64,000 bases of DNA from Candidatus Omnitrophota bacterium. Its GTDB lineage: Bacteria; Omnitrophota; Gorgyraeia; Zapsychrales; Fredricksoniimonadaceae. The notes under the pieces were generated by a model. That model had not been told where the DNA came from and ran no database searches. It was given only the letters and a program-made list of their open reading frames with translations. This document shows, one piece after another, positions 40,792 to 43,700 of this stretch (its first letter is position 1; each line of letters opens with the position of its first letter). A program made the position numbers and the translations under genes. Where the stretch lies: NCBI GenBank assembly GCA_044225175.1, contig JBGAJA010000001.1:422711-486710 (forward strand), read 5' to 3'.

Positions 40792-43700
40792 ATGCGAAAT
40801 TTTCTTACTGTTAAGCTAGTCTTTATTTCAGTTTTCTTCGTCATTCCACTCGCAACAGCAGCAGACAATCCAACAACACAACCCAAATCAGAACTCGTTC
40901 ATCCTAGGGCTCAAATTGAGGCCGAAACTGTGCCTGTTAGCTCTGATCCAAAACAAATTCAGGATGTGATTTCGCAGAACAAACAGAATCTTGAGGATAA
41001 AGATACTGATAAATCTAGTGCCCGGGCAACGGAAAAGAAAACAGAAGTTGTATCTCCAGACAAAAATAATCAAAGAGACGGTGGTAATTCTCCTAGTGGC
41101 GGTCCGGGAGGCTCTGTGCCTACCAATGTTCAGAATTCTACGGTTAATGTGGAACCCTTCTCAGGCAGTGCCAATATGGCTTATCCTATTCAGGTGCCTC
41201 CAGGTAGAGGGGGAATTCAACCGAATTTAGCTTTGACGTATTCTTCCAGTTTTAGAAGCTTAGGTTTAGCGGGGATTGGTTGGACTATGGACTTGGGTTC
41301 AATCCAGCTGTCAACAAAGAAGGGTCCGCCTAAATATGATGGGACGGACATAGTTACTTTGATTGAAAATGGTTCATCACAAGATTTAGTTTATGACTCA
41401 GCAGTAGGGTTTTATCGTACGGAAGTTGAAGGAGCTTTTGCAAAGATCCAAAAGGTGGCAGACCATTGGGAGGTAACAGACAAGAAGGGTGTTAAATATT
41501 ATTTTGGTAATACCGATGATTCTCGTTCTTTTGATCCAGCCAATCAAAGTCATATCTTCCGTTGGGCATTAAATAGAGTAGAAGATCTTAATGGTGACTA
41601 TATGACAATGAGTTATCTTAAAGATCAAGGACAGTTGTATCCACAGTCGCTAGCCTATACAGGAAATAGCCAAAAATCTTTAAACACTTATGCGCAGATA
41701 TTATTCAATTATGAAGATACGGGTCTGCCATTTCATTCTTACATGGAAGGATTTTTAGTTAAAACGAGCAAGAGAATTAGCAGTGTTAATAGTTTTGTTA
41801 ATGGTATAAATCAAGTTTCGTATAATTTTATTTATCAAACTTCTACTATTACTGGTCATTCCAGACTATCTCAAATAAGTGAATGTCGCCCTCAGAATGT
41901 ATGTTTACCGCCGGTTATTTTCAATTGGCAAGATATTGAAGGGAAAATTGTTGGTTCAACAGCCACTGGAGCTGGTGGAGCACAGCGATGGTCACCGGCT
42001 GATTGGAGCTGGAGATCTTATGAAATTGCGGATGTCAATGGCGATGGTTTTCATGATTTCATTAGTTTTCAGACAGATGGTGTTTATGTGTGGAAATCAA
42101 CAGGTACGGGATTTGCTGCTGTGGAACACTGGTCATTGGTGAATTGGGATCCAAGTGCAAGAAGACATGGGATAGCTGATATTAATGGAGATGGGAAAGC
42201 AGATTTAATTAGTTTTCAAACTGACGGATTGTATGTCTGGATTTCGACCGGATCTGGTCTTTTGGGTGAACAGCGATGGTCACCAGCTGATTGGAGTTGG
42301 AGATCCTATGAAATTGCGGATGTCAATGGGGATGGTTTTCATGATTTTATCAGTTTTCAGACAGATGGTGTTTATGTGTGGAAATCAACAGGTACGGGAT
42401 TTGCTGGTGTGGAACACTGGTCATTGGTGAACTGGGATCCAAGCGCAAGAAGACATGGGATAACTGATATTAATGGAGATGGGAAAGCGGATTTGATTAG
42501 TTTTCAAACTGACGGATTGTATGTCTGGATTTCGACCGGATCTGGTCTTTTGGGTGAACAGCGATGGTCATCAGCTGATTGGAGCTGGAGATCTTATGAA
42601 ATTGCTGATATGAATGGCGACGGGTTAAGTGATTTCATCAGTTTTCAGACAGATGGTGTTTATGTGTGGAAATCAACAGGTAAGGGATTTGATGGTGTAG
42701 AACGCTGGTCATTGGTGAATTGGGACCCAAATACAAGAGAGCATGGAGTAGCAGATATAAATGGTGATGGAAAATTTGATTTACTAAGTTTTCAAAGCGA
42801 TGGACTCTATGTGTGGCTATCGACAGGAGTTAGTCTTCTTGGAGAAAAACGTTGGTCCATGGAAAACTGGAATAGAAAGCATTCGATTGCTGATATGAAT
42901 GGAGATGGAAAGGGAGATTTTATTAGTTTGCAAACAGATGGTCTTTATGTTTGGGAGAATAATAAGGGGATATCGGATTTGCTTAAAAGTACCAATAATA
43001 GTATTGGTGTTGTTAATAGCATTGATTATGAATATTCCACACAATATGAGAATTTCCTATTACCATTTTCTATTCCTGTTGTTAAGACAACATCAATGAC
43101 TATATCAAATCCAATAGGTGCGCCTAGTACTTATACGACTAATTATCATTACGCTGGCGGCAAATGGAATGCGGCAAATCGAGAGTTTCAAGGCTTTCAA
43201 GCGGTCAAGGTTATAGATACTCAAGGGAATTACAGCCAAACAACATATCTACAAGACCACTGGCTTAAAGGTCGCCCTTTAGAACAAAGTACCTATGATG
43301 CTCAAGGAGTCATCCAAAATAAGGTTGTTAATCAGTGGCAGACCCAGGACATAACAACTCATACAGCAACCGATCAAATTTCTAAGTTTATTTACTTGGG
43401 GCGAGTTGATAATTATCTTTATGATGGTGTAACAACTGCCAAACGTACGACCCAGACTTCCTCTTATAATGAAAACCCTCAATATGGCAATGTCACTCAA
43501 ACATTCAATTTGGGGGAAGTAGATTTTGTTACAGGTAATGATGTTGGAAATGACACAGTGATAACGACTTATGAATATACTTCCAATGCAAGTAATTGGC
43601 TTATAGGTCTTCCTAAATATACTTCTATCCAAGATTCTAATGGCAACACACTAGGACAATTATGGCTTTATTACGACGGAAGTGACGATAATAATGCTAT

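Follow-up and report, generated by a model that had tools for sequence, protein, structure and literature searches.

Here we report that a 64-kb stretch of an Omnitrophota genome (Candidatus Omnitrophota bacterium, contig JBGAJA010000001.1, positions 422,711 to 486,710; hereafter the window) carries four tandem paralogous genes, p1 to p4, for proteins of about 240 kDa in which TcB-like and TcC-like halves, named after subunits of the toxin complex (Tc) toxins, are fused in one polypeptide. Very probably, these are toxins or effectors of the TcdB/TcaC type, built in the order signal peptide, SpvB, propeller and rearrangement hot spot (RHS) shell, which are exported by the general secretory (Sec) pathway and are encoded next to neither TcA nor immunity genes. 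All four lie on the plus strand: p1 at 40792..47259 (2155 aa), p2 at 47439..54005 (2188 aa), p3 at 54155..60634 (2159 aa) and p4 at 60702..64000, the last being the 5' part (1099 codons) of a gene that runs off the window, so that the data on the cargo and the RHS core cover p1 to p3. As delineated with Pfam, NCBIfam and a hand-written signal-peptide rule (the n-h-c rule, below), p1 comprises a signal peptide (residues 1–23), a linker (24–117), SpvB (122–286), a VCBS/FG-GAP propeller (about 380–690), TcdB_midN (697–827), the RHS shell, the Rhs core (1778–1862) and a variable C-terminal region (1863–2155). In p2, the signal peptide spans residues 1–23 (nucleotides 47439–47507), the linker 24–119, the Rhs core 1832–1916 (52932–53186) and the C-terminal region 1917–2188 (53187–54002). 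The corresponding parts of p3 are residues 1–22 (54155–54220), 23–151, 1793–1877 (59531–59785) and 1878–2159 (59786–60631), while the signal peptide of p4 occupies residues 1–25 (60702–60776), with further in-frame ATG codons at 60651 and 60708.

The N-terminal sequences that a sequence-only reading of this DNA had quoted for the paralogs are all present where it placed them: MRNFLTVKLVFISVFFVIPLATA|ADNPTTQP in p1 (ATG at 40792, residues 1–36 corresponding to 40792–40900), MRNLFIVNLALVSTFLAIPHSNA|TDNQPTQP in p2 (ATG at 47439), MKRVCFCFIFFVILSIVSTSYG|APRP in p3 (ATG at 54155) and MSMKNIFVGKLVFILMFFPILSANA|ADNQP in p4 (ATG at 60702), the bar marking the predicted cut. The n-h-c rule asks that the stretch ahead of the core be net positive, that the core be hydrophobic and 7–20 residues long, that the residues at −1 and −3 be small and the one at +1 not proline, and that the mature start be polar; in its strict form, cleavage must also fall at or before residue 35. 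By this rule cleavage is predicted after residues 23, 23, 22 and 25 of p1 to p4, at ATA|AD, SNA|TD, SYG|AP and ANA|AD; in p1 (signal peptide at 40792..40860) the three regions read MRNFLTVK, LVFISVFFVI and PLATA. The net charge of the n-regions is +2, +1, +2 and +2, the cores are 10, 15, 14 and 8 residues long with a best 8-residue Kyte–Doolittle window of 2.7–3.5, and the mature starts are hydrophilic, with a mean hydropathy of −1.1 to −1.6 over the next 20 residues. The strict rule accepts all four paralogs and none of the 34 other open reading frames (ORFs) of at least 150 aa in the window (Fisher exact p about 1e-5), which upholds the earlier claim of n-h-c leaders with A-x-A-like sites on all four. 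A looser first version had flagged five of the 34 control ORFs, mostly membrane proteins, and accepted 55 of 93 database homologs, being too strict for the alanine-rich leaders of GC-rich homologs. Inspection of the four N-termini found no twin-arginine (RR) motif, no lipobox ([LVI][ASTVI][GAS]C) or cysteine at +1, and no prepilin motif of the form G|F(T/S)LxE; lipoprotein, twin-arginine translocation (Tat) and prepilin signals were ruled out on this absence of their motifs. The N-termini are thus confirmed as predicted leaders of the type served by Sec and signal peptidase I (SPase I), from which we infer Sec export itself and leader cleavage. Each leader is followed by a disordered linker of 83–129 aa, rich in S, T, P, K and Q, with a grand average of hydropathy (GRAVY) of −0.8 to −1.4; that of p1 (40861..41142, 94 aa, GRAVY −1.28) is hydrophilic and of low complexity and contains the motif KSELVHPR, which is common to p2 and p4.

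A leader of this kind is not peculiar to the window. Searching with residues 1–900 of p2 yielded 93 database proteins, the best of which is named Omnitrophica and shares 49% identity, and a genome scan with one genome per species yielded 80 loci with 82 ORFs that contain the N-terminal domain. The leader test on these homologs was anchored on the domain, asking for a charged n-region and a hydrophobic segment before SpvB as mapped by phmmer. Such a leader-like segment precedes SpvB in 78 of the 93 database homologs, most of the others being truncated proteins that begin inside the domain, and in 73 of the 82 genome ORFs, the rest of which are mostly cut at contig ends. Hence, a predicted leader is the rule in this family, being found in about 90% of homologs. 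This, along with the published definition of the class (PMC3482391), runs counter to the earlier view that a leader is unusual on TcB/TcC-like proteins. The 80 loci come overwhelmingly from Omnitrophota metagenome-assembled genomes (MAGs), some of them labelled 'uncultured Planctomycetales', with remoter members in Nitrospirota, Verrucomicrobia, Desulfobacteraceae, Gammaproteobacteria and several lineages of Patescibacteria, the candidate phyla radiation (CPR). The CPR homologs carry the same kind of leader; as CPR bacteria are thought to have no outer membrane, Sec alone would place the protein outside their cells. The complete genes of the family nearly all code for single fused polypeptides of 1900–2850 aa. 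One related MAG contig (L017) shares with the window the block rimP-nusA-infB-trpS-scpA-ruvB at 47–85% amino-acid identity.

The translation starts and the evolution of the leader bear on the same question. A purine-rich, Shine–Dalgarno-like motif lies 5' of each ATG and is strongest in p3 (TAGGAGA). Gene calls stored with independent Logan assemblies of the same sample have the same ATG for p1 and p3, and for p4 an ATG 17 codons upstream, which still precedes the hydrophobic core and gives a longer n-region. In three comparisons among p1, p2 and p4, the ratio of nonsynonymous to synonymous substitution rates (dN/dS) is 0.2–0.4 over the 102–117 aligned codons before SpvB, which argues that this region is translated and constrained; for the leader alone the ratio is 0.28–0.52, and by this measure the leader of p1, p2 and p4 is under purifying selection. 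The leader of p3 (MKRVCFCFIFFVILSIVSTSYG) is unrelated in sequence to those of p1, p2 and p4, and homology to the other paralogs restarts at PSE(L/M)V(H/E)PR. At 54072..54092 on the plus strand, 83 nucleotides 5' of the present p3 ATG and preceded by the same gctgccc context, there is a relic of a p1/p2-type leader start, gctgcccATGCGAAATCTTCTTGTATAA, whose codons ATG CGA AAT CTT CTT GTA TAA read MRNLLV and then a stop. To judge from these sequences, p3 lost the ancestral leader and another, unrelated one took its place.

Behind the leader and linker, the paralogs show the domain complement of the Tc subunits. SpvB (PF03534), FG-GAP/VCBS (PF13517/PF01839) and TcdB_toxin_midN (PF12256) score above the gathering thresholds in all four, and so do the RHS repeats (PF05593; Pfam E-values of 1e-33 to 1e-48). 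An AlphaFold2 model of p2 residues 1–900, built from a 58-sequence alignment (mean predicted local distance difference test score, pLDDT, 81; predicted template-modelling score, pTM, 0.81), shows a helix at residues 4–14, a pLDDT below 60 to about residue 118 and thereafter a beta-rich fold with values above 90. In a Foldseek search of the PDB, the top 13 matches are TcB subunits (TcdB1, TcdB2 and YenB; E 2.7e-37 to 1e-31; TM-score relative to the query, TMq, 0.54–0.61), the RHS shells of the type VI secretion system (T6SS) as well as the teneurins being far worse (TMq at most 0.2). Residues 109–188 of p2 align to residues 20–95 of YenB, so that the N-terminal extension relative to YenB, roughly 90–130 residues, is made up of the predicted leader and the hydrophilic linker. 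At 41982–42828, the propeller region of p1 contains 2.9 tandem copies, 89% identical, of a 288-bp unit that codes for a double VCBS/FG-GAP blade, which points to a recent internal amplification of the p1 propeller, unlike the non-repetitive propellers of p2 to p4.

At the other end of the shell, Rhs_assc_core (TIGR03696) is matched with 75–77 bits in p1 to p3 against a cut-off of 32.5; the core of p1, the putative autoprotease, lies at 46123..46377 (74.9 bits) and ends in NNNPVNNIDPSGH. It aligns with TcdB2-TccC3 and YenC2 up to the residue at which the crystallised chains end, and both autoprotease aspartates are kept, namely those of GRFITAD and of IDP(S/T)G, aligned to the aspartates of TccC3 and YenC2. 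The catalytic role of the RHS-core aspartates is known from published work (D651A mutant, entry 6H6F). Given this alignment and the retention of both residues, autoproteolysis after DP(S/T)GH is to be expected.

The C-terminal cargos that would thus be cut off comprise 293, 272 and 282 aa in p1 to p3 (29–30 kDa; isoelectric point, pI, 8.5–9.2), the p1 cargo at 46378..47256 having 30.4 kDa and a pI of 9.2, and in length they fall within the 201–400 aa by which hypervariable C-terminal regions have been delimited (Song et al. 2021, PMC7861908). Their heads follow directly after the RHS core (46378–46800 in p1, 53187–53600 in p2 and 59786–60200 in p3) and begin with SWFKK(F/W), in p1 SWFKKFW. Then comes a glycine-zipper module of about 100–140 residues, with 36–42% Gly+Ala, some 30 small-xxx-small-xxx-small motifs and 19-residue hydropathy windows above 1.2, after which the hydrophilic tails of p1 to p3 are mutually unrelated. 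In many Omnitrophota homologs, too, the core is succeeded by a head of the form H-x-W-S-W-K-K-F-W with a glycine zipper. An exhaustive HMMER/phmmer search of 1.84 billion representatives with the p1 cargo returned 46 proteins, all matching about residues 2–140 of the query. Nine of these were inspected: six are full or near-full TcB-TcC-like (BC-like) proteins of about 2000–3000 aa, five of them with leader-like N-termini and the other (P0238) beginning within the propeller, and the remaining three are fragments from the C-terminus. In the inspected matches the zipper module lies about 300 aa from the C-terminus, and the tails differ, with an HExxH-like motif in one and an HSEGT motif in several. 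As the tails differ and the zipper head is kept, the polymorphic junction appears to lie after a conserved glycine-zipper 'pre-toxin' module. A Pfam scan of the cargo with E up to 1 found nothing, phmmer against the PDB with E up to 10 gave chance matches only, and a word-indexed search returned one fragment.

When set beside known systems, the window proteins correspond most closely to the TcdB/TcaC class, which was defined by a signal peptide, SpvB, an integrin-like (FG-GAP) propeller, RHS repeats and a variable C-terminal toxin, and whose effector-like versions differ only in having no immunity genes (Zhang, de Souza, Anantharaman, Iyer & Aravind 2012, Biol Direct 7:18; PMC3482391). They match this architecture point by point; as the downstream immunity gene and/or orphan cassettes that also mark the class are missing from the window, they belong with its effector-like kind. 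Omnitrophota and Patescibacteria are absent from the taxon list of that study (PMC3482391), and the window further departs from the class as described in that a conserved glycine-zipper module without a match in any curated toxin family stands at the head of its cargo, and in having four full-length tandem copies but neither immunity genes nor orphan cassettes. The canonical Tc BC proteins (TcdB2-TccC3, 4O9X/6H6G; YenB-YenC2, 4IGL) share the fold over the N-terminal 780 structured residues and, beyond it, SpvB, FG-GAP, TcdB_midN, the RHS shell, the Rhs core with both aspartates and a basic cargo of similar size. However, they have no signal peptide or linker, the SpvB domain of YenB starting at about residue 20 as against about 110–150 in the window; they are usually two polypeptides that need a TcA pentamer, as opposed to the one fused chain of the window; and as cargo they carry a soluble enzyme that has no long hydrophobic stretches, unlike the cargo found here. 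Canonical Tc components have no export signals and are released by lysis mediated by a type 10 secretion system (PMC10847048), so that the contrast which the sequence-only reading drew with them was correct, though the class it chose for comparison was too narrow.

That reading had also pointed to cell-wall and contact-dependent inhibition (CDI)-type RHS proteins such as WapA. This comparison has experimental support, in that deletion of the signal peptide showed a ~350-kDa Rhs/WapA protein to depend on Sec for its export (PMC12704120). The WapA proteins of B. subtilis and S. suis (WapA-CT1) resemble the window proteins in that an RHS cocoon exceeding 200 kDa bears an N-terminal Sec signal, undergoes autoproteolysis and ends in a polymorphic toxin, but have cell-wall-binding N-terminal domains in place of SpvB and the propeller, are followed by an immunity gene and come from monoderm producers. 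Tse5 of P. aeruginosa (8CP6), the best PDB sequence match over the RHS region, likewise has an RHS cocoon around a hydrophobic, membrane-inserting cargo; it differs in its delivery by the T6SS, its want of a signal peptide and of SpvB and propeller, and its immunity protein. Its cargo has no detectable sequence similarity to those of the window. Finally, bacterial teneurin-like YD-shell toxins are predicted to carry signals for signal peptidase I or II (Sec/SPI or SPII), and one of their C-terminal domains is membrane-damaging (Raoelijaona et al. 2026, PMC13018210); they have FN-plug, NHL and TIP domains instead of SpvB/FG-GAP and co-encoded immunity proteins, and the N-terminal half of the window proteins is a poor fold match to teneurins (TMq about 0.1).

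The partners that a Tc-like or immunity-linked system might be expected to have were looked for both in the window and around its relatives. No TcA-like gene is present in the 64-kb window, where no other ORF exceeds 861 aa, and among ORFs of at least 900 aa within 10 kb of the 80 related loci there is no match to a TcA family; those found code for beta-helix/dockerin proteins, a molybdopterin oxidoreductase, a resistance–nodulation–division (RND) pump, Ig-repeat surface proteins or proteins with no Pfam match. The gaps between the window paralogs hold no plausible ORF for an immunity gene, and two minus-strand ORFs considered as such, at 47233–47424 and 53952–54125, are alike solely over an intergenic DNA motif that they share. 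A linked set of type II secretion system (T2SS) genes (GspD/E/F/G) was not encountered in the window. Two isolated genes recall such systems: a lone prepilin-type ORF at 33275–33724 on the plus strand, between hemA and the atp operon and about 7 kb 5' of p1, whose best NCBIfam match is GspG (TIGR01710, 45 bits against a cut-off of 88.85), and a lone TadA/CpaF-like ATPase at 9091–10362 on the plus strand, between rseP and proS (PF00437; TIGR03819, 286 bits against a cut-off of 373). The latter scores 286 bits for TadA/CpaF as against 36 bits for GspE, is the only T2SSE-family ATPase in the window and has no further pilus or secretion genes around it.

Taken together, these features suggest the following course of events. 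Each protein would start with its Sec/SPase-I leader and the disordered hydrophilic linker; the unfolded chain would pass through SecYEG, with the leader being cut at residues 22–25, and the shell would fold beyond the inner membrane. The RHS core would then cut after DP(S/T)GH, with the basic cargo of 29–30 kDa presumably being kept in the cocoon, and the cocoon would be used against another cell. There, the W-x-W-K-K-F-W-type motif and the glycine-zipper module would most likely insert into the target-cell membrane or help the tail to cross it. Four points weigh against this scheme. Whether the leader is cleaved or acts as an anchor was judged solely by the hand-written n-h-c rule. In p1 and p2, an internal in-frame GTG, at 41116 and 47769, respectively, follows a perfect GGAGG directly before SpvB. 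No solved or curated toxin resembles the cargo in sequence, because of which the membrane activity of the glycine-zipper module is one that we infer from composition alone, with Tse5, whose cargo is rich in glycine zippers, as an analogy. Lastly, the hydrophobic segments of the cargo, whose 19-residue Kyte–Doolittle windows reach about 2.2 in homologs, could act as stop-transfer sequences, in which case the C-terminus would stay in the producer's own membrane and not in the cocoon; the KK motif, lying N-terminal of the first hydrophobic stretch, is on the wrong side for a stop-transfer anchor by the positive-inside rule, which argues weakly the other way.

Two of these points can be developed into alternative accounts of the N-terminus. 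Were the starts misannotated, the internal GTG would give cytoplasmic BC proteins, and its position 5–10 nucleotides behind the GGAGG makes it the only serious alternative start, which could serve as a secondary one yielding a leaderless form. As the main start, it is extremely unlikely: the GGAGG belongs to conserved SGGPGGS codons, p3 has no equivalent, and p3 has apparently gained a new leader after the old start was lost, while the dN/dS of the hundred-plus codons upstream and the conservation of the leader in homologs from many phyla argue against it. The objection of an internal downstream start, which the sequence-only reading had raised against itself, has thus been checked and finds little in its favour. 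Alternatively, the hydrophobic segment could be an uncleaved signal anchor, with the linker as a stalk that tethers the cocoon to the cytoplasmic membrane in a teneurin-like type II topology. The long disordered, S/T/P/K-rich linker behind that segment would suit this, as would the cores of 14–15 residues in p2 and p3 and the proposal that related bacterial teneurin-like toxins are surface-displayed (PMC13018210). With cores of 8–15 residues, below a typical transmembrane anchor, and a helix-breaking Pro/Gly ahead of A-x-A, S-x-A or S-x-G in each of the four paralogs and in most homologs, we nonetheless rate an anchor as quite improbable, and prefer a cleaved leader.

Other alternatives concern what would follow Sec export of the leader-bearing proteins. 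A T2SS might carry the folded cocoon over the outer membrane into the medium, a route for which the sequence-only reading had invoked the prepilin-type ORF at 33275–33724. T2SS-like and type IV pilus (T4P)-like loci are reported to be widespread in Omnitrophota (bioRxiv 10.1101/2023.11.21.568195; 10.64898/2026.06.07.730766), and in four related loci, including the closest relative, L017, the BC gene has a GspE/PilB-type ATPase no more than 10 kb away. This proposed link is nevertheless weak: the pilin-like gene stands alone, matches GspG at about half the cut-off score and has the atp operon between it and p1; the window's sole T2SSE-family ATPase is of the TadA/CpaF kind; and a pilin-like gene or GspE/PilB-like ATPase occurs within 10 kb in only seven of the 80 loci. 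Moreover, the same leader is kept in CPR bacteria, in which there would be no outer membrane to cross. At roughly 10 nm across, a BC cocoon of about 240 kDa is wider than the usually quoted lumen of the GspD secretin, for which it thus looks too large. Hence, we consider passage through a T2SS unlikely. Still less likely by far is that these are ordinary Tc BC subunits, with TcA encoded elsewhere in the genome and the holotoxin being assembled after export. Their fold, domains and autoprotease core do match TcB-TcC, and their cargos satisfy the TcA rules of 20–35 kDa and a pI of at least 8 (bioRxiv 10.1101/706333). However, neither the window nor the 10-kb surroundings of the 80 related loci yielded a TcA-like ORF, canonical subunits have no signal sequences, and the same rules disfavour extensive hydrophobic patches (bioRxiv 10.1101/706333), as against the conserved glycine-zipper module of ~130 aa found here.

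The preferred reading, that of Sec-exported toxins or effectors of the TcdB/TcaC type, leaves current understanding unchanged in one respect, as TcB/TcC-like proteins bearing a Sec leader have been on record since 2012. What merits following up is the strong expansion of the class in Omnitrophota, which are tiny, probably host-dependent or predatory bacteria with almost no experimentally studied effectors, together with the conserved glycine-zipper cargo head; here, the cocoon is a single fused polypeptide with no TcA gene within 10 kb. The Omnitrophota papers that we searched discuss giant secreted proteins and T2SS/T4P-like loci, not the RHS cocoon proteins described here. As a speculation to which we give rather low credence, TcA-independent, Sec-exported BC cocoons with a glycine-zipper entry module of their own could be a self-sufficient delivery device of ultra-small, host-dependent or predatory bacteria. 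A further, similarly doubtful part of this idea is that the cocoon is displayed on or released from the envelope and is used by Omnitrophota and, more distantly, by Patescibacteria/CPR against the cells to which they are attached. If true, the zipper head would do the membrane-crossing job of TcA or the T6SS, making this a third way of deploying RHS cocoons in diderms, and a self-sufficient device would also account for the absent immunity genes. Should the module be a self-translocation or pore device, RHS cocoons could intoxicate without TcA or a T6SS, and it might perhaps be useful for engineered protein-delivery shells.

The genomic surroundings of the related loci show several recurrent associations. 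When the 764 neighbour ORFs of the 80 loci were clustered in search of an obligatory partner gene, the candidates that emerged were XRE-cupin, histidine kinase, response regulator and IS200 transposase genes and the gene of a 539-aa protein, none of which stands beside the window array, so that they were rejected as obligatory partners. In a subset of Omnitrophota (L003, L012, L013, L020, L025, L028, L032, L033, L044, L046, L048, L054 and L055), a block 1–9 kb upstream of the BC gene holds an XRE-cupin regulator, histidine-kinase and response-regulator genes, small unannotated ORFs and the 539-aa protein, which is a secreted protein with weak beta-propeller matches; this block is absent from the window. 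In 14 of the 80 loci (among them L020, L032, L033, L044, L054, L055, L046, L058, L050, L064 and L019), IS200-like Y1 transposase genes (PF01797) are found upstream or downstream of the BC-like gene, at most a few hundred bp away, which suggests that BC genes occupy mobile or recombination-prone sites. Orphan RHS C-terminal fragments of 209–523 aa follow the full-length gene in eight related loci (L017, L028, L038, L050, L067, L071, L078 and L081) and are the displaced-tip cassettes typical of rhs loci; the window has four full-length copies instead and no such cassette. In nine further cases (L021, L034, L035, L036, L037, L047, L068, L069 and L080), a leader-bearing ORF of 99–1192 aa, likewise absent from the window, adjoins the BC gene at its start or overlaps with it there and may code for an operonic accessory protein; a 300-aa representative has no Pfam match.

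The window itself has a G+C content of 38.6%, and all its credible genes are on the plus strand. It opens with housekeeping genes (serA, purA, uppS, cdsA, dxr, rseP, proS, rimP, nusA, infB, trpS and ruvB), and further ones include sdh genes, genes for heme and molybdopterin biosynthesis, a P-type ATPase and hemA; the array is preceded by an F1Fo ATP synthase operon (33725–40287, plus strand), which is complete and whose AtpD is 100% identical to an NCBI protein and shares 87–93% identity with many AtpD proteins of Omnitrophota. Between atpC and p1 lies a 134-aa ORF (40291..40695, plus strand) whose N-terminus, MKNINASLMFSLILVSIGYADKSHA|QD, resembles a leader and which contains several cysteines. 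The gene calls of the Logan contigs include it, Pfam and NCBIfam give no match, and it did not turn up beside BC genes in the 80 related loci; its membership of the toxin array is unproven. A scan for promoters and terminators 5' of p1 gave nothing beyond the expectation from shuffled sequence. A perfect hairpin, GTTACC-TTTGA-GGTAAC, is present at 40739–40755, 37 nucleotides 5' of the p1 ATG; it has no T-run and was not called a terminator. The paralogs are separated by gaps of 179 bp (173 bp with a TTG start at 47433), 149 bp and 67 bp. In the first two of these, at 47393–47409 and 54013–54029, 5' of p2 and p3, the motif GG(G/T)ACACATTGAATTAA follows a run of A; it may have a regulatory role or be left over from the unit that was duplicated, and it is what makes the two spurious minus-strand ORFs alike.

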